In this document: in pieces, positions 30,965-41,230 of the stretch
Numbering within the stretch: the first letter of the stretch is position 1
Layout of the letters: every line of letters starts with the position of its first letter
DNA from: an uncultured Gammaproteobacteria bacterium
Lineage (GTDB): Bacteria > Patescibacteriota > Patescibacteriia > UBA1558 > GWA2-36-10
Length of the DNA stretch: 46,235 nt
Assembly (NCBI GenBank): GCA_964533435.1
Contig: CAZHLU010000002.1
Span: 1,203 to 47,437, forward strand
Direction: 5' to 3'
Notes under the pieces: model-generated
Told to the model about the DNA's origin: nothing
What the model saw: the letters and a program-made list of their open reading frames with translations, nothing else
Database searches by the model: none
Program-made: the position numbers and the translations under genes

Positions 30965-32719
30965 TTATTGTAATATTGCTTTGATTCTTCTAACACCAGC
31001 TGAAGACGCTTCTTCTTTGGTAATTTTAAAAGTGCCAAGCTCTTTGGTATTGTTAACATGGGGTCCACCACAGATTTCTCGACTAAAAAAATTATCATCA
31101 CTGCCAACTGTATAAACTTTTACTTTTTCACCATACTTATGACCAAACAAGCCAATGGCATTTTTTTCTTTTGCTTCTTCAACTGTCATTTCGCTCCAGC
31201 TAACTGCTAAAGCTTTATTAATTTGTTCATTGACCAAATCTTCAACAGCTTTAATTTGCTCGGGTGTCATTTTATCTGGATAAGAAAAGTCAAAACGTAA
31301 ACGTTCAGTATTGATATTACTACCCTTTTGCGCTACTTCTGGTCCTAATATTTTGCGTAAAGCTTGATGTAATAGATGGGTAGCAGTATGGTATCTAGTA
31401 CTCATAACACTATCGTCTGCTAGTCCGCCTTTAAACATACCGGCTGATGCTGTGCGTGAAAGCTCTTGGTGTTTTTTGAATTCCGCTTCAAATTCTTGTT
31501 TATTGATTTGAATATTATTTTCTTGAGCTAGCTCTTCAGTCATTTCCAAAGGAAAGCCGTAAGTAGAAAATAAAATAAAAGCAATTTTGCCATCAACGGT
31601 TTTTTGTTTAGCAAATTCGCGTAAACCTTTTTCTAAAGTAGCAGTGAATTTTTTTTCTTCTTGTTCAATTTCTTTTATTATAAATTCTTTATTTGTGATT
31701 AACTCAGGATAAGTATCACTATATTGTTTAATAATAATGTCAGTTAAAATTTTGCTAAAATTATTTTTTATGCCTAATATTTTAGCAAAACGAATAGCTC
31801 TCCTAATTAAGCGGCGTAATACATAGCCTTGATCTTTATTAGAAGGACTAACTCCCTTAGGATCACCTAAAATAAAGACAGCGCTACGAATATGGTCGGC
31901 AATAATACGAAAAGCTTTTTTGTCATCTTCGTATTTTTTTTCAGATAGTTTTTCTATTTCATTAATAATTGGTAAAAATAAATCAGTTTGGTAGTTATCA
32001 TCTAGGTTATTTAAGACAGCCACAGTTCTTTCTAAACCCATACCAGTATCAATATTTTTTTGAGCTAAAGCTTCAAATTTATCAGGTGCAGTTTTATTGT
32101 ATTCCATAAAAACATTATTCCAGATTTCAACCCAAAGCTTATCTTCTGGATCAAATGATTCTGGGATTTTATTTTTATCTCCTGTCCAATAAAAAATTTC
32201 TGTATCAGGACCACAAGGGCCAGTATTACCTGCTGGACCCCACCAATTATCTTTAATTCCTAATTTAGCAATTCTGTTTTTATTTATTCCTAATTTTAAC
32301 CAATGTTCAAAAGCAACTTTATCTTCTGGAACATTCTGATCGCCTTGCCAAATTGAAACAGCTAGTAATTCTGGTTTAATTTTTAATTCTTTAGTTAAAA
32401 ATTCCCAAGCAAAATCAATGGCTTGATTTTTATCATAGTCACCTAAAGACCAATTACCAAGCATTTCAAAAAAAGTATGATGAGTAGTATCCCCGATTTC
32501 ATCAATATCTCCGGTACGCACACATTTTTGTACACTGACTAATCTTTTGCCTTGAGGATGTTTTTCGCCCATTAGATAAGGCACTAAAGGGTGCATGCCA
32601 GCAGTAGTAAATAAAACAGTCGGATCATTATCTGGTATTAAAGAAGCAGAGCTAATAATGGTGTGATTTTGTTTTTTGAAGTATTCTAAAAATTTATTTC
32701 TTAATTCTTGTGCTTGCAT
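30965..32719 (-). CDS. alaS: Alanyl-tRNA synthetase, compact form lacking the C-Ala domain
   Basis: 584 aa. AlaRS N-terminus (FLEYFKKQNHTIISSASLIPDNDPTVLFTTAGM) and editing-domain zinc motifs HTATHLLHQAL and CGGPHV. The protein ends shortly after the editing domain. Confidence 0.92.
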   Translation of the reverse strand: MQAQELRNKFLEYFKKQNHTIISSASLIPDNDPTVLFTTAGMHPLVPYLMGEKHPQGKRLVSVQKCVRTGDIDEIGDTTHHTFFEMLGNWSLGDYDKNQAIDFAWEFLTKELKIKPELLAVSIWQGDQNVPEDKVAFEHWLKLGINKNRIAKLGIKDNWWGPAGNTGPCGPDTEIFYWTGDKNKIPESFDPEDKLWVEIWNNVFMEYNKTAPDKFEALAQKNIDTGMGLERTVAVLNNLDDNYQTDLFLPIINEIEKLSEKKYEDDKKAFRIIADHIRSAVFILGDPKGVSPSNKDQGYVLRRLIRRAIRFAKILGIKNNFSKILTDIIIKQYSDTYPELITNKEFIIKEIEQEEKKFTATLEKGLREFAKQKTVDGKIAFILFSTYGFPLEMTEELAQENNIQINKQEFEAEFKKHQELSRTASAGMFKGGLADDSVMSTRYHTATHLLHQALRKILGPEVAQKGSNINTERLRFDFSYPDKMTPEQIKAVEDLVNEQINKALAVSWSEMTVEEAKEKNAIGLFGHKYGEKVKVYTVGSDDNFFSREICGGPHVNNTKELGTFKITKEEASSAGVRRIKAILQ

Positions 32720-33203: not shown

Positions 33204-33282
33204 TTTTTCCTCCCTATTGCAAGTGTGAAGTACAAAGGATAACTAAAGTTTACTCGTGCTTTTTTAAAAAATCAAATTTTAA

Positions 33283-33316
33283 ACAAAAAGAAAACCCTCG
33301 GTGCTAGGCACGAGGG
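33283..33316 (-). terminator. Terminator of the tRNA-like/trailer transcript
   Basis: CCCTCG (33295-33300) pairs with CGAGGG (33311-33316), with an inner 3-bp extension, followed on the - strand by UUUUCUUUUU. Confidence 0.75.
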
Positions 33317-33434
33317 TCCTGGAAAAATTGAGACTGCCTCTAGTAAACCCCGCTGAATAGGTTGTTGGAACTATTTAGGGTTCCGCGCCCTCAGCATGAG
33401 GTGTTACGAAGCAATCTCAAAGCGTTAAAGAACT
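33317..33434 (-). ncRNA. Structured 3' trailer RNA co-transcribed with the tRNA-like element
   Basis: GC-rich and about 118 nt. The long-range helix GAGAUUGC / GCAGUCUC encloses the hairpins CCUCA-UGC-UGAGG and GGAAC-CCUAAAUA-GUUCC. It sits between the encoded CCA end at 33435 and the terminator. Confidence 0.5.
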
Positions 33435-33516
33435 TGGTGGGGACAGTAGGGTTTGAACCTACGACCTCTTCCACTTCCGTGGAAGCGCTCTTTCAAGAAG
33501 TCTGAGCTATGCCCCC
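33435..33516 (-). ncRNA. tRNA-like RNA without an anticodon loop
   Basis: 82 nt: GGGGGCA-UA-GCUC-AGACUUCUUGAAA-GAGC-G-CUUCCAC-GGAA-GUGGAAG-AGGUC-GUAGG-UUCAAAC-CCUAC-UGUCCCC-ACCA. The acceptor stem, D stem, 5-nt variable loop, T arm and encoded CCA are canonical. The anticodon arm is replaced by a perfect 7-bp stem with a GGAA tetraloop, and the 13-nt D loop lacks the GG. Confidence 0.7.
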
Positions 33517-33529
33517 ACTTAGGTTGTGT

Positions 33530-33557
33530 ATATTAACATATTTATAGTATTTGTCAA
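33530..33557 (-). promoter_or_regulatory. Promoter of the tRNA-like transcript
   Basis: On the - strand: TTGACA (33557-33552), 16-nt spacer, TAATAT (33535-33530). The predicted start lies about 7 nt upstream of tRNA-like position 1. Confidence 0.6.
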
Positions 33558-33574
33558 GACTTTAAGGGCGCTAA

Positions 33575-33606
33575 AACAAAAAACCGCCTAAATAAGCGGT
33601 TTTTTC
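33575..33606 (-). terminator. Terminator of the RGG/zinc-ribbon gene
   Basis: ACCGC (33583-33587) pairs with GCGGT (33596-33600), flanked by A/T runs on both sides. Confidence 0.6.
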
Positions 33607-33629
33607 TATATTTCTTTAATAAAATAGCT

Positions 33630-34277
33630 TTATTTCGAAGCTTTTTTAGCTATTTTAGCTTTTTTTATAGCTTTAGGAGCTTTGGTAACTTTGCTTGCCT
33701 TTTTTTCCTTTGCTTCTACTTTTAGTTCTTTTTCAATTTTTACTGGCTTATCAACAATTAGTTTTTTTACTTCGGCTTTAGGAAAATTTTTCAAAATTTC
33801 ATCAAGCTTTTGGTTAATATTTTTAAGTTGTTGTTCTAGTTTTTCATTACTAGGACCACTACCAGATTTTTTATCTTTAGCTCTGCTATCTTGTCCAAAG
33901 CAATTTGAACAAAGCACAGGCTTGTCGCCAGTTGGTCTAAAAGGTACTTCGCAAGGATCGCCACATTCAGTACAAACGGCTTTAAACATTTTTTTATCAC
34001 GAAAATTGCTTTTGCCAAAATCTCGACCACCACTAGATCGATTAGAGCCAAAGCTACTGTCTTTACCTTTAAAGCAGTTATTACAATAAACTGGTTTATC
34101 ACCAGTTGGTCTAAAAGGTACTTCGCAAGGATCGCCACATTCAGCGCAAACAGCTTTGTGCATAGCTGGTCTGGCACCACTGTCGCCCCTACCAAATCCT
34201 CTGCCTGAGTCTCGGCGACCAAATCCACCGCCACCTTTGCGGTCATTAAACCTTCCGCCCTTATTAAAATTACCCAT
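33630..34277 (-). CDS. RGG-box protein with two CxxC-x17-CxxC zinc-ribbon repeats and a lysine-rich tail
   Basis: 215 aa. The N-terminus is G/R/F-rich (GGRFNDRKGGGGFGRRDSGRGFGRGDSG). It carries two copies of KAVC.ECGDPCEVPFRPTGDKPV.C.NCF, and the C-terminus is K/A/E-rich. Likely nucleic-acid binding. Confidence 0.75.
   Translation of the reverse strand: MGNFNKGGRFNDRKGGGGFGRRDSGRGFGRGDSGARPAMHKAVCAECGDPCEVPFRPTGDKPVYCNNCFKGKDSSFGSNRSSGGRDFGKSNFRDKKMFKAVCTECGDPCEVPFRPTGDKPVLCSNCFGQDSRAKDKKSGSGPSNEKLEQQLKNINQKLDEILKNFPKAEVKKLIVDKPVKIEKELKVEAKEKKASKVTKAPKAIKKAKIAKKASK
33928..34144. repeat. Perfect 43-nt intragenic direct repeat (two copies)
   Basis: CCAGTTGGTCTAAAAGGTACTTCGCAAGGATCGCCACATTCAG occurs at 33928-33970 and 34102-34144, 174 nt apart and in frame. 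It encodes the two zinc-ribbon repeats. Confidence 0.95.
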
Positions 34278-34750: not shown

Positions 34751-35093
34751 TAATAAAAAAAAGAACCCCCTCCCGCATAGATGTGAATGTAGCAGATGGG
34801 AGGGGGCAAAGGGTACCGCAGTGCACTTATGGCAAGGCCATTTCTGGTAAAGCTGAGCTTGAGTTTGACCCGTCGGGTCACCCTTCCGGCTTTTGGAGCC
34901 GTCACCGTTTGGCGTTCTAGAATGCCGAGTGGTAGTGGGGGTGCGCAAGAGTTAGTCTTGCCCAAGCAAAGCCCTTAACGAAAGGTGACGCCTTTACGTT
35001 AGAAAGGCTCCGTCCGTATTCCAGAATGATCTGGCGCTTGCTCAAAAGATGCTAGCAGTATTCCCTCTAAAAAGAGTTGAAGAACCACGAAAG
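34751..35093 (-). ncRNA. Unclassified GC-rich structured RNA (~340 nt)
   Basis: Has its own promoter (35100-35127) and a terminator: CCCCCUCCC (34806-34798) pairs with GGGAGGGGG (34774-34766), followed by a U-run. Many local and long-range helices are visible, including CCAGA-UCAU-UCUGG, GCAAGA-CUAAC-UCUUGC, UGACCC-GAC-GGGUCA, AUGGC-CUU-GCCAU, and GGAGCC..CGUCACC pairing with GGUGACG-GCUCC. Stop-free in several frames, but with no SD or plausible protein. Confidence 0.65.
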
Positions 35094-35099
35094 ATTAAT

Positions 35100-35127
35100 A
35101 TCATAGCATATTATATAAAAATGTCAA
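35100..35127 (-). promoter_or_regulatory. Promoter of the ~340-nt RNA
   Basis: On the - strand: TTGACA (35127-35122), 16-nt spacer, TATGAT (35105-35100). Confidence 0.55.
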
Positions 35128-35130
35128 GAT

Positions 35131-39472: not shown

Positions 39473-41230
39473 TTAAAATTTTATTACTTGACCAGGCTTT
39501 AAGATTTGACTGGATTTTTGATTAGAAGTTTGAGTTTTATTTTTTGTTATATTAGGACTAGTGTTTTGATTGGATACAGGTTTAGCTTTGATAGCATCAG
39601 CTAGAGAAATAAATGATTCTTTGCTTTCGTCTGTTTTTTCTTCTGCCACAACCTCATCCTTGGGTGATGTTGGCTTTACTATTTTAATACTAGACGGAGA
39701 AGGAATTTTACCTTGTTTTGCTAGTTCTAAACAATTGTTGCAATACACTGGTCGATTTGGATCAGGATCAAAATTAATTTCTGTTTCCTTACCACAATAA
39801 GTGCAATTTATTTTATTGACAACGCTAGGCTTTTTAGCTTTAGCTTCTTTTTTAGCAGCCATTTTACTAGCAAAAGTAGGTTTAGCTGGAGCTTTGGCTT
39901 TACTAGCTACAGGCTCTTTATTTTCACTCCAACGTGTAATTTTGTCTTCAATAATTTCACGAGGTTTAGCATAACGTTCACGAGAAACTTTAACTACTTT
40001 TTCTTTAATGCCAGTAGAATTTTCAGGTGTAGCTACAGGTGGCAAACCAATAGCTGAAAAAGGTTCAGTAGTGACGCCATTAATCATTAATTTCAAATAC
40101 ATTTCAAACTTTGACAGATTAACTAAATCTTCTTGAGTAAAAATTGGAAAAAATTCTTTTTCTAAAAATTCAGCATCATTAGCACCTACCCTAAAGGCTA
40201 CAATAGTACCGACATTGCCGAAAACGGCAGATTTAATAGTTTCATCACTACCAAATTTTAATTGATCTATGTATTGGTGGGCAATTACTAAATTAAGGGC
40301 ATATTTACGAGCTTCGGATAAGATATTAGCAAAACTATGAGTAGCAAAATTTTGAAATTCATCAACATAAAGATAAAAATCTTTTCTATCTTTTTCAGGG
40401 GTATCAACCCTAGACATGACTGCCAGCTGAATCTTGGTAATCATCATAGAACCAAGTAAAGCCGAATTATCTTCGCCTACCCTACCTTTAGAAAGATTTA
40501 GTAAAAGAATTTTTTCTTCATCCATTACTTCGCGCATAGAAAAAGAAGATTTGACCTGACCTAAAACATTTCTAATTAAAGAAGATGACAAAAAGCGTCC
40601 AACCTTATTTTGAATTGGAGCAATAGCTTCAGCTTGAAAACGGTCAGGATATTTAGAATATTCATCCACCCAGAAAGCTTTGACTACCGGGTCAGTAATT
40701 TTTTCGATTACTCTTTCTCTAAAATTCTTGTCAGTCAGAATACGCATAATACCCAAAAGTGTAGAACCTGGGTATTCAAGTAATGCCGAAATTGCATGGT
40801 GTAAAACGTATTCAAGTCTTGGTCCCCAAGAATCAGCCCATATTTTTTTAAAGACGCCAATCAGACCAGATACAACTAAATGTCGCTGTTCAATATTAAC
40901 ACTTTCTAAAACATTAAAAGCAATCGGATAATCAAGGTCAGCTGGATTAAAATAAATAACGTCATTAATACGTTCTGGTGGTATAAAATCAATTACTTTT
41001 TCAACTAAATCGCCGTGTGGATCAACTACACAAACACCTCGTCCATTACGGATGTCTTGGATAATCATGTTTTCCAACATGGTACTTTTACCCATACCAG
41101 TCTTACCAATGATATACATGTGTTTACGTCGGTCGTCTGGTTTAATACCAAATTTAACCTGAGAATTACGAAAATTCGTCTGGGCAAAAACAGTTACATC
41201 TTGATTATTATTTTTATTTTGCGAATGCAT
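39473..41230 (-). CDS. Anchorless VirD4/TraD/HerA-like P-loop ATPase with C-terminal CxxC-x17-CxxC zinc ribbon
   Basis: 585 aa. Walker A is IIGKTGMGKS and Walker B is FYLYVDEFQNF. No TM segment. The C-terminal K/A-rich linker leads to CTYCGKETEINFDPDPNRPVYCNNC, encoded at about 39733-39806. Confidence 0.8.
   Translation of the reverse strand: MHSQNKNNNQDVTVFAQTNFRNSQVKFGIKPDDRRKHMYIIGKTGMGKSTMLENMIIQDIRNGRGVCVVDPHGDLVEKVIDFIPPERINDVIYFNPADLDYPIAFNVLESVNIEQRHLVVSGLIGVFKKIWADSWGPRLEYVLHHAISALLEYPGSTLLGIMRILTDKNFRERVIEKITDPVVKAFWVDEYSKYPDRFQAEAIAPIQNKVGRFLSSSLIRNVLGQVKSSFSMREVMDEEKILLLNLSKGRVGEDNSALLGSMMITKIQLAVMSRVDTPEKDRKDFYLYVDEFQNFATHSFANILSEARKYALNLVIAHQYIDQLKFGSDETIKSAVFGNVGTIVAFRVGANDAEFLEKEFFPIFTQEDLVNLSKFEMYLKLMINGVTTEPFSAIGLPPVATPENSTGIKEKVVKVSRERYAKPREIIEDKITRWSENKEPVASKAKAPAKPTFASKMAAKKEAKAKKPSVVNKINCTYCGKETEINFDPDPNRPVYCNNCLELAKQGKIPSPSSIKIVKPTSPKDEVVAEEKTDESKESFISLADAIKAKPVSNQNTSPNITKNKTQTSNQKSSQILKPGQVIKF

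Follow-up and report, generated by a model that had tools for sequence, protein, structure and literature searches.

In the MALAT1/mascRNA system, in the TMERs of MHV68, which join a vtRNA to pre-miRNA hairpins, and in the plant tRNA-snoRNA dicistrons, a tRNA-shaped module that is non-decoding or dispensable recruits tRNA-processing enzymes and defines the ends of the RNA. In E. coli, the trailer that separates a tRNA from the terminator of its operon gives rise to a functional small RNA (sRNA), 3'ETS-leuZ, and the tRNAs upstream of it are ordinary, essential decoders. Non-decoding tRNA-like RNAs are rare in bacteria, and we know of no bacterial counterpart of these systems in which the tRNA module is degenerate. 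YrlA, a bacterial Y RNA, combines a tRNA-like domain with a long helix, and the M. smegmatis RNA is cut by RNase P and receives CCA; the tRNA-like domain is embedded in the Ro-binding helix, the motif GNCGAAN0-1G is present and the gene lies next to rsr (PMC4201824). The tRNA-Other of B. cereus is a chromosomal pseudo-tRNA that is reported to act outside translation, on a T-box leader and by way of its normal, intact anticodon loop (CCA, Trp) (PMC3399842). Our literature search returned no paper on tRNA-like RNAs in the Patescibacteria, or candidate phyla radiation (CPR). Here we describe an element of this kind at positions 33435-33516 of the minus strand of a 46,235-nt stretch of a Patescibacteria chromosome (contig CAZHLU010000002.1; the whole stretch is called the window). 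It is probably a tRNA-derived non-coding RNA, neither a working tRNA nor a dead gene, and it occurs as the first module of a longer RNA.

The element had been noticed in an initial annotation made from the letters alone, which proposed a non-decoding tRNA-shaped RNA. When the minus strand was read over 33300-33700, each of the cloverleaf features listed there was recovered at 33435-33516 (-): a 7-bp acceptor stem (GGGGGCA/UGUCCCC, G5-U68 included), U8 and A9, a 4-bp D stem (GCUC/GAGC), a 5-nt variable loop (AGGUC) and a canonical T arm (GUAGG-UUCAAAC-CCUAC), followed by the discriminator A and CCA. The Rfam tRNA model RF00005 covers 33438-33516(-) end to end with 45.9 bits (gathering score 29; E of about 1e-6 for the window), and the same covariance search gave no tmRNA match. 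This model sets 8 nt (ACGGAAGU) at the position of the 7-nt anticodon loop, which corresponds to an alternative reading of the arm as a 5-bp stem with an 8-nt loop. The minimum free energy (MFE) fold instead closes the arm into 7 bp capped by GGAA, with no open loop (z = -3.3 versus shuffles). ARAGORN made no tRNA or tmRNA call across the whole 46-kb window, which is explained by the closure of the anticodon arm into a 7-bp/GGAA hairpin and by a D loop without G18G19. The failure, or an isotype left undetermined, had been anticipated, as had the point that no anticodon can be assigned to the window copy: the tRNA finder assigns none.

The initial annotation had also advised a search of related genomes for covarying homologues, and two diverged copies were found in which all cloverleaf pairs are kept by compensatory changes, which places the element well beyond chance. 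Six independent metagenome contigs of the same species (L081-L086) carry the 426-nt intergenic region with 99.8-100% identity; the sequence is thus fixed in the species, and these contigs are too similar to inform covariation. The full unit, reached through homologues of HsmA, occurs in L087 (NCBI JAHZTO010193738.1), where the protein encoded downstream, HsmA, is 86% identical and the Rfam tRNA score is 55 bits, and in L088 (Logan SRR13959604), with HsmA 67% identical and a score of 62 bits (62.4, the highest of the copies). Both share with the window copy (hereafter W) the CTTGACAAAT promoter, the tRNA-like element, the CCA-(A)GUUC junction, a long hairpin and a terminator, after which comes HsmA. 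A fourth contig, L093 (HsmA 77% identical), breaks off precisely at the element behind the terminator.

The three full copies were placed in a register-preserving three-way alignment of the cloverleaf, in which 21 base pairs give 63 pair cells. All 63 are canonical, and in 8 of the 21 pairs both partners have changed; of these pairs, three belong to the acceptor stem, three to the anticodon stem and two to the T stem. None of 500 shuffles reached these measures, and sliding the 3' partners out of register lowered pairing to 43-56%. U8, A14, the pair G15-C48, G26, G46, the D stem, the T loop and CCA are invariant in the three cloverleaves, and G53-C61 and U54-A58 are present as well. The D loops of L087 and L088 are normal (AGUUGGCA and AGUUGGUA), with AGUUGGC/UA and G18G19 kept, so that the GG-less D loop is a derived state that belongs to the window lineage only. 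The case that the initial annotation had set against its own proposal, a recently disrupted tRNA or a pseudogene without covariation, is contradicted by helices that covariation has preserved.

The anticodon arm behaves differently. The three arms are 18, 19 and 17 nt long in W, L087 and L088 and differ in sequence (Table 1), and the closed 7-bp/GGAA hairpin is not a defining trait of the element: by this comparison it is the state reached in the window lineage by a hypervariable arm, not a conserved functional feature. Position 33 is C in all three copies, and none has U33. The discriminator N73 is A/U/U and the pair 2:71 is G-C/C-G/A-U across W/L087/L088, and this variation, together with G3:C70, argues against a fixed aminoacyl-tRNA synthetase identity. 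The covarying helices, the discordant anticodon arms and the variable N73 and 2:71 therefore point to selection on the tRNA shape and not on an anticodon or a fixed acceptor identity. The unrelated pseudo-anticodons, the C33 of all three copies and the covariation of the helices bear out the earlier proposal of a tRNA-shaped RNA that does not decode, and it seems highly likely that the element is functional, selected for its structure and non-decoding.

That the gene encodes a true decoding tRNA whose anticodon loop is unusual, such as a recoding tRNA or one with an expanded loop, is hardly credible against these data. The Rfam tRNA scores of 45.9-62.4 bits would suit such a gene, and ARAGORN does name two of the orthologues, as Arg(tcg) and Phe(aaa); however, the anticodons of the orthologues are fully discordant, none of them has U33, and the loop and arm lengths differ (an 8-nt loop or a closed arm in W, 6 bp and 7 nt in L087, 5 bp and 7 nt in L088), with no open loop in the MFE fold of W. 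To our knowledge, the AAA anticodon is not used for Phe in bacteria, which also counts against decoding.

Whether the cloverleaf is instead the remnant of a decaying tRNA gene was judged against a neutral yardstick for W versus L087, given by four-fold degenerate sites pooled over three flanking genes (68% identical, 64/94). Third-codon identity between the same loci is 67-72% in the HsmA and zinc-finger genes and 92% in the cold-shock gene. The promoter (87%) and the trailer that follows the cloverleaf (84%) are more similar than that, and the tRNA-like segment stands at 60%, with its anticodon arm wholly replaced between W and L087. Once the D loop and the anticodon arm are left aside, about 22% of the cloverleaf positions differ by our hand count, as against a neutral level of about 32%. 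In the comparison with the more distant L088, the cloverleaf is 65% identical, above the 44% of the trailer, which still keeps the helix-forming blocks P1, P3 and P4 and the terminator. Because promoter and trailer exceed the four-fold identity and the pairs of the cloverleaf are kept, the hairpin of the trailer appears constrained in sequence and the cloverleaf in shape.

A tRNA pseudogene that hitch-hikes upstream of a functional trailer sRNA, with no function of its own, would explain why the anticodon loop has been destroyed in three different ways, why W has also lost G18G19 and gained a 5-nt insertion in the D loop, and why the divergence of the tRNA-like segment between W and L087 lies at or past the level of four-fold sites. 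Neutral decay should nevertheless break helices, yet every pair cell is canonical and eight double changes have accumulated in the acceptor, anticodon and T stems. Moreover, once the two variable loops are set aside, the hand-counted divergence falls short of the neutral expectation, and the nucleotides of the T loop, the D stem and the tertiary core are invariant. Taken together, these observations make the pseudogene very improbable.

Some particulars of the variable arm and loop may be recorded here. The window anticodon arm (33468-33485) is a perfect palindrome that holds a GGAAG-U-GGAAG repeat, and the 5-nt insertion in the D loop (33491-33503) makes that loop (ACUUCUUGAAA) similar to the linker behind the CCA (AGUUCUUUAAC). 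Both the palindromic arm and the insertion look like products of slippage or of quasi-palindrome correction and not of point mutation. The 9-nt loop of the L087 arm, CCCUCGGCG, matches as a perfect reverse complement the 3' strand, CGCCGAGGG, of the terminator of the same unit (L087:1875-1905), and the whole L087 arm is similar to the 5' strand of the window terminator (GGACCCUCGUGCC). An equivalent complementarity was found in neither W nor L088. A general antiterminator or kissing pairing between anticodon arm and trailer was dropped on this ground, and the L087 match could be a one-off, either a templated (template-switch) mutation or a lineage-specific antitermination device.

The tRNA-like element does not stand alone. 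The unit runs in the order promoter, cloverleaf, linker, hairpin of about 93 nt and intrinsic terminator, and its primary transcript is about 235 nt long in the window (Table 1). The promoter named in the initial annotation, TTGACA-16-TAATAT, was found again at 33557..33530, with an extended TG in addition, and its -35 block CTTGACAAAT is identical in the three lineages (invariant columns of the three-way alignment). The short leader between the promoter and the cloverleaf is the presumed RNase P substrate leader, its length following from the presumed transcription start. The linker is unpaired in all folds computed, and it is a candidate endonuclease site, at which a putative cleavage would achieve 3' maturation or part the two modules. 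Three helices of the hairpin are common to the three lineages, namely P1 (GAGAnnGC/GCnnUCUC), P3 (ACCUC/GGGGU) and P4 (RCUGA/UCRGY). The 160-nt trailer has a z score of -5.0 versus shuffles in the window, the trailers of the other two lineages have -4.8 and -4.2, and the terminator is kept in the three lineages with a compensatory change (C-G / U-G / A-U). No open reading frame (ORF) is conserved across the three units that would favour a coding reading of the trailer.

Folded as a whole, the transcript forms three independent domains, the cloverleaf, the hairpin and the terminator, and in all three lineages one promoter and one intrinsic terminator enclose both modules. From this bracketing and from the independence of the domains it follows that the tRNA-like element is the 5' module of the unit of about 235 nt, and the conservation pattern makes it very likely that cloverleaf and hairpin form a single unit.

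Table 1. Features of the RNA unit and of the genes downstream of it (window coordinates unless a contig is named)
Feature	Position	Strand	Description
Sigma-70-type promoter, TTGACA-16-(TG)TAATAT	33530..33557	-	promoter scan: 10/12 matches, extended TG
5' leader, ~6-8 nt	33517..33524	-	ACCU conserved; distance from -10 box to G+1 of cloverleaf
tRNA-derived cloverleaf	33435..33516	-	82 nt; encoded CCA at 33435-33437
D loop	33491..33503	-	AGACUUCUUGAAA, 13 nt; without G18G19; 5 nt inserted relative to homologues
Anticodon-arm position, W	33468..33485	-	CUUCCAC-GGAA-GUGGAAG, 18 nt; perfect 7-bp hairpin, GNRA loop; ARAGORN: none
Anticodon arm, L087	L087:1712-1730		UUGGUC-CCUCGGC-GGCCAA, 19 nt (6 bp + 7 nt, or 9-nt loop); ARAGORN: tRNA-Arg(tcg)
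Anticodon arm, L088			CUUUC-UCAAAAG-GAAAG, 17 nt (5 bp + 7 nt); ARAGORN: tRNA-Phe(aaa)
Single-stranded linker, (A)GUUCUUUAACGCU, 14 nt	33421..33434	-	directly after CCA; invariant GTTC.TT block
Imperfect hairpin, ~93 nt	33328..33420	-	apex variable
Intrinsic terminator	33281..33320	-	GC-rich hairpin core ACCCUCGUGC...GCACCGAGGGU, then UUUUCUUUUU; ends the RNA unit
Promoter-like element, TTGATT-17-TAAACT	33247..33275	-	between RNA-unit terminator and HsmA gene; context, outside the RNA
HsmA-family membrane protein, 115 aa	32856-33203	-	own terminator
AlaRS (alaS), 584 aa, short form	30965-32719	-	matches NCBIfam PRK01584 end to end

The position of the unit, directly upstream of HsmA and on the same strand in the three full copies and probably in L093, with its terminator separated from the start codon of HsmA by no more than about 80 nt, raises the question of a cis-regulatory leader, in which tRNA-like element, hairpin and terminator would make up a long 5' leader and regulated read-through would control HsmA. 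This arrangement is decidedly improbable, as a separate element, TTGATT-17-TAAACT, is conserved between the terminator and HsmA. W, L087 and L088 all carry the block AAAATTTGATTTT and TAAACT without change, and L093 has the AAATTTGATTTT block but TACACT at the -10-like position; the element scores under the threshold of a simple promoter scan, and by its conservation it would mark HsmA as a transcription unit of its own. Furthermore, no conserved antiterminator pairing was found in the three lineages, the unit has no Rfam riboswitch or leader match, and among HsmA homologues at 46-65% identity the unit is absent, with upstream gaps of only 52-170 nt, or the contigs are cut.

How the two modules might work together can be approached through the enzymes of tRNA maturation. 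The minihelix formed by acceptor stem and T arm is what RNase P, RNase Z and the CCA-adding enzyme recognise, and bacterial RNase P pairs with RCCA. The loss of the anticodon loop, and even of G18G19, would therefore be tolerated in substrates of these enzymes. In several bacteria an encoded CCA is also an anti-determinant for RNase Z. CCA could therefore aid 5' maturation and stop exonucleases, or else keep the modules joined. CCA is encoded in all three tRNA-like copies and in one of seven ordinary tRNA genes from related CPR loci, a difference that is suggestive only, as the latter come from the genomes of other species. Cleavage at the borders of the module, whether by RNase P, RNase Z or RNase E, would be in keeping with the 7-bp acceptor stem, the encoded RCCA-type end and the conserved AU-rich linker.

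In the mechanism proposed, RNase P would trim the short leader of the primary transcript, and an endonuclease would then cut the AU-rich linker just past the CCA, with exonucleases halting at the encoded CCA; alternatively, the encoded CCA would block RNase Z and the two modules would remain joined. Either route would yield a nuclease-resistant tRNA-like end and a defined hairpin RNA, of which the hairpin would be the effector, and the closed GGAA arm and the GG-less D loop of W would represent lineage-specific drift in parts of the fold that such a role can spare. The proposal accommodates a cloverleaf constrained only in shape, the tolerance of a closed arm and of the loss of G18G19, and the higher sequence constraint on the hairpin. 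Stated in full and with its mechanism, as a self-contained sRNA gene in which a non-decoding, tRNA-type maturation or stability module precedes a hairpin that is the sequence-specific working part, it is the best supported of the readings considered, yet falls a little short of being probable on comparative grounds. That the cloverleaf serves specifically in maturation or stability is suggested somewhat more tentatively.

Several observations weigh against a maturation module joined to an effector hairpin. The unit is represented by only three diverged lineages and one cut contig, all of one clade, and the covariation consists of few independent events. That of the trailer helices appears modest: 97.7% of the cells pair and three double changes are seen, but 18 of 500 shuffles equal that in an alignment that was registered by hand and covers helices only. 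Processing of the unit is inferred throughout. The initial annotation had named a processing handle for a trailer RNA among its suggestions, and this suggestion gains support from the trailer, whose hairpin is conserved, folds strongly and in every copy lies in one transcription unit with the tRNA-like module, while the processing keeps its conjectural status. No target, partner gene or known motif was found for the hairpin. Finally, a minihelix would suffice as a handle, yet the cloverleaf keeps its D and anticodon stems, its Levitt pair and its tertiary core, with G18G19 in L087 and L088, and this retention of the whole L-shape hints at recognition by some other partner.

The last point leads to a trans-acting tRNA mimic, in which the released cloverleaf of 76-82 nt would itself be the effector, as a decoy or regulator of a protein or RNA that reads the L-shape, or as an anticodon-independent aminoacyl carrier for a non-ribosomal transferase, and the rest of the transcript would be a mere 3' trailer with a terminator. 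The whole cloverleaf is indeed preserved, down to U8, A14, G15-C48, G26, G46, G53-C61 and U54-A58 and, in L087 and L088, G18G19; its CCA is encoded in 3/3 copies and rarely so in ordinary tRNA genes of relatives; and tRNA-Other of B. cereus is a precedent for a regulatory pseudo-tRNA outside translation (PMC3399842). A mimic is all the same unlikely. The variable N73 and 2:71 and the absent G3:U70 argue against one dedicated synthetase, and against AlaRS specifically, and the same variable acceptor positions weaken the decoy and the amino-acid carrier suggested earlier. Readers of the tRNA elbow, such as T-box leaders, RNase P and the ribosome, rely on G18G19, which pair with T-loop positions 55 and 56 and have been lost in W. 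No gene that could encode a partner accompanies the unit in all three lineages, and the higher sequence conservation of the trailer hairpin relative to the cloverleaf is left without an explanation, whereas it is expected if the hairpin is the working part of an sRNA with a tRNA-type module at its 5' end.

On the minus strand, the cold-shock protein gene and then the gene for a 215-aa RGG/double CxxC zinc-finger protein (33630-34277), which has a terminator, lie 5' of the unit; the HsmA gene, a promoter, AlaRS, an S30AE-family protein and SecA follow 3' of it. The AlaRS is a short form, with the catalytic core and the editing/SAD domain and without the C-Ala domain, and its best-matching relatives come from metagenome-assembled genomes (MAGs) of CPR, DPANN-labelled, Spirochaete and Clostridia origin. 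The initial annotation had drawn attention to alaS at 0.7 kb and to a backbone resembling tRNA-Ala. The gene does start 716 nt downstream, but the interval contains the HsmA gene, which ends in a terminator of its own, and another promoter. Across 80 loci sampled around AlaRS relatives (the nearest AlaRS being 70% identical), no tRNA or tRNA-like element occurs near alaS in the closest CPR loci, and in the nearest relatives MnmA directly abuts AlaRS-S30AE-SecA. The MnmA-AlaRS junction of these relatives has no such element; the roughly 3.3 kb with GreA, the cold-shock and zinc-finger genes, the RNA unit and HsmA are therefore a lineage-variable insert. The proximity of alaS to the RNA unit is incidental, and the RNA is independent of alaS. 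The G3-U70 pair, already reported as missing, is replaced by G-C in all three lineages, and the sole G-U acceptor pair is 5:68, in W only. Ancestry from tRNA-Ala gains no support, as the isotype comparison returned Arg, Trp, Thr, Ile, Val and Ala among the nearest ordinary tRNAs and favoured none of them consistently; with neither synteny in relatives nor a G3:U70 pair, the link to alaS and tRNA-Ala is not supported.

The rest of the window is an ordinary segment of a Patescibacteria chromosome, with glycosyltransferases, SerRS, Def/Fmt and SecDF among others, and with further synthetases of the class II Asp/Lys/Asn (D, K, N) family and of the Glu/Gln-type class I (tRNA-synt_1c). Among the scanned ORFs of the window, none encodes Ro60/TROVE/Rsr, RtcB, a reverse transcriptase or a CRISPR component. 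The 215-aa protein encoded just upstream of the unit, which is rich in RGG and lysine, contains two copies of a treble-clef zinc finger (zf_Tbcl_2 / CxxC-x17-CxxC), and another copy stands at the C-terminus of a 585-aa homologue of TrwB/TraG-like coupling proteins 6 kb away (39473-41230, -).

A second, unannotated candidate RNA gene lies at 34752-35128 (-), between the GreA/62-aa ORF and the cold-shock gene. It has a promoter (CTTGACATTTTTATATAATATGCTATGATATT), a body of about 330 nt with 55-59% GC and a terminator (CCCCCUCCC/GGGAGGGGG), with z = -5.2 and no Rfam match. It is conserved in all three lineages (L088:1294-1648 and L087:68-452, and also L084:1062-1450), its copies sharing the blocks TGGTTCTTC, CTGCnAGCATCTT, GGACGGAGCCT and TTAAGGG, so that two novel RNA units flank the cold-shock/zinc-finger gene pair. 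In a more distant relative, with a GreA 67% identical to that of the window (L140:1705-1945, -; the contig is also present as L141-L143, and the RNA scan covered L140), a different GC-rich RNA of about 230 nt extends from promoter to terminator in a roughly comparable position, with z = -3.6, no Rfam match and no tRNA-like module. It lies downstream of genes for 66-aa and 223-aa proteins, the latter unrelated to the window zinc-finger protein. Its hairpin GAGACUUG...CGAGUCUCAAG recalls helix P1; homology is unproven, and the RNA is apparently unrelated. In a locus labelled as a Woesearchaeota MAG (L010:11690-11775), ARAGORN calls a long-arm 'tRNA-???' with a 2-nt anticodon 'gc' beside a tRNA-Arg, and the Rfam tRNA score is 59 bits.

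The RNA unit is so far known from three to four lineages of one narrow Patescibacteria (CPR) clade. In GreA-anchored loci (62-77% identity) it is absent or the contigs are cut. A metagenome scan with the pattern T arm - CCA - GUUCNUU - GAGA returned 13 matches, all of them ordinary tRNAs or tmRNAs, and scans of viral contigs, with the trailer and promoter patterns and with HsmA and the zinc-finger protein as anchors, gave only ordinary tRNAs, random matches or nothing. As far as the aligned copies allow, the finding is more substantial than a lone odd tRNA, yet narrower and less exotic than its earlier headline, since the GNRA arm is lineage-specific, no link to AlaRS exists and three to four lineages are involved.

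Nevertheless, the unit bears on several questions. A standard finder reports the same orthologous gene as tRNA-Arg, as tRNA-Phe or not at all; therefore, such elements can silently distort the tRNA complements inferred for CPR genomes, which feed arguments on reduced translation systems. The three copies also form a natural experiment on the tRNA fold after decoding is lost, in which the acceptor, D and T stems and the core are constrained and the anticodon loop is free, as is the GG of the D loop in the window lineage. If the tRNA-type module is what it appears to be, it would show that the tRNA fold has been put to new use for processing or stability in bacteria, as it has in eukaryotes and herpesviruses, and the unit would offer a tractable substrate for learning what CPR tRNA-processing enzymes recognise. 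A more far-reaching suggestion, and a somewhat unlikely one, is that the unit would be the founding example of a class of bacterial chimeric sRNAs, in which an anticodon-less, CCA-bearing shape module is permanently coupled to an effector hairpin. Such a class would be the prokaryotic counterpart of the mascRNA/TMER strategy and would draw on the enzymes of tRNA maturation (RNase P, 3' trimming and possibly CCA repair) for the production or protection of a regulatory RNA. More boldly still, the L-shaped head could anchor the hairpin to a machine that binds tRNA, for instance the ribosome, EF-Tu or an enzyme that modifies or repairs tRNAs.

Compared with the known systems, the cloverleaf has much of a canonical bacterial tRNA (RF00005): stems of 7/4/5/5 bp, U8, A14, the G15-C48 Levitt pair, G26, a 5-nt variable loop, a GGUUCRAnnCC T arm, a discriminator with CCA, a short leader and a strong promoter. 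Unlike such a tRNA, it has no 7-nt anticodon loop with U33 and R37, its arm is hypervariable, W lacks G18G19, and the tRNA-like part is always trailed by a conserved hairpin in its own transcription unit. Like tmRNA, the 5' end of which is matured by RNase P, it joins a tRNA-like module to a second domain. However, tmRNA builds a tRNA-like domain from its two ends, without a D stem or an anticodon arm, is charged through G3:U70 and carries a tag frame and pseudoknots, whereas here the cloverleaf is contiguous and has G3:C70; neither ARAGORN nor Rfam matched tmRNA in the window, and the three units share no conserved ORF. No Rfam family, whether T-box, riboswitch, signal recognition particle (SRP) RNA or 6S RNA, exceeded its threshold in the unit, where the sub-threshold matches are at chance level. 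The contiguous cloverleaf at the 5' end also sets the unit apart from YrlA, and the GNCGAAN0-1G motif is absent from W and L087 (two of the three copies), with no Rfam Y-RNA match.

Like tRNA-Other of B. cereus, the element is a tRNA-like RNA encoded on a bacterial chromosome and treated as unusual by gene finders; unlike it, the element is fused to a hairpin, and its anticodon loop is the least conserved part, while tRNA-Other has no fused hairpin and flanks a genomic island. Unlike RNAs of the 3'ETS-leuZ type, the tRNA part has here lost its decoding features. In layout the nearest analogues are these tRNA-trailer sRNAs together with mascRNA, the TMERs and the tRNA-snoRNA dicistrons. With the last three the unit shares a tRNA-shaped module and a second structured RNA in one transcript, and a poorly conserved anticodon loop. 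These three belong to eukaryotes or viruses, depend on Pol II or Pol III for their transcription and supply the RNase P/Z, miRNA or snoRNA pathways, whereas in the present unit cleavage at the borders of the modules is putative. The layout of the TMERs, with a tRNA-like part, a hairpin and a U-run terminator, is strikingly similar to that of the present unit, which is a variation on the theme of tRNA-like non-coding RNAs.

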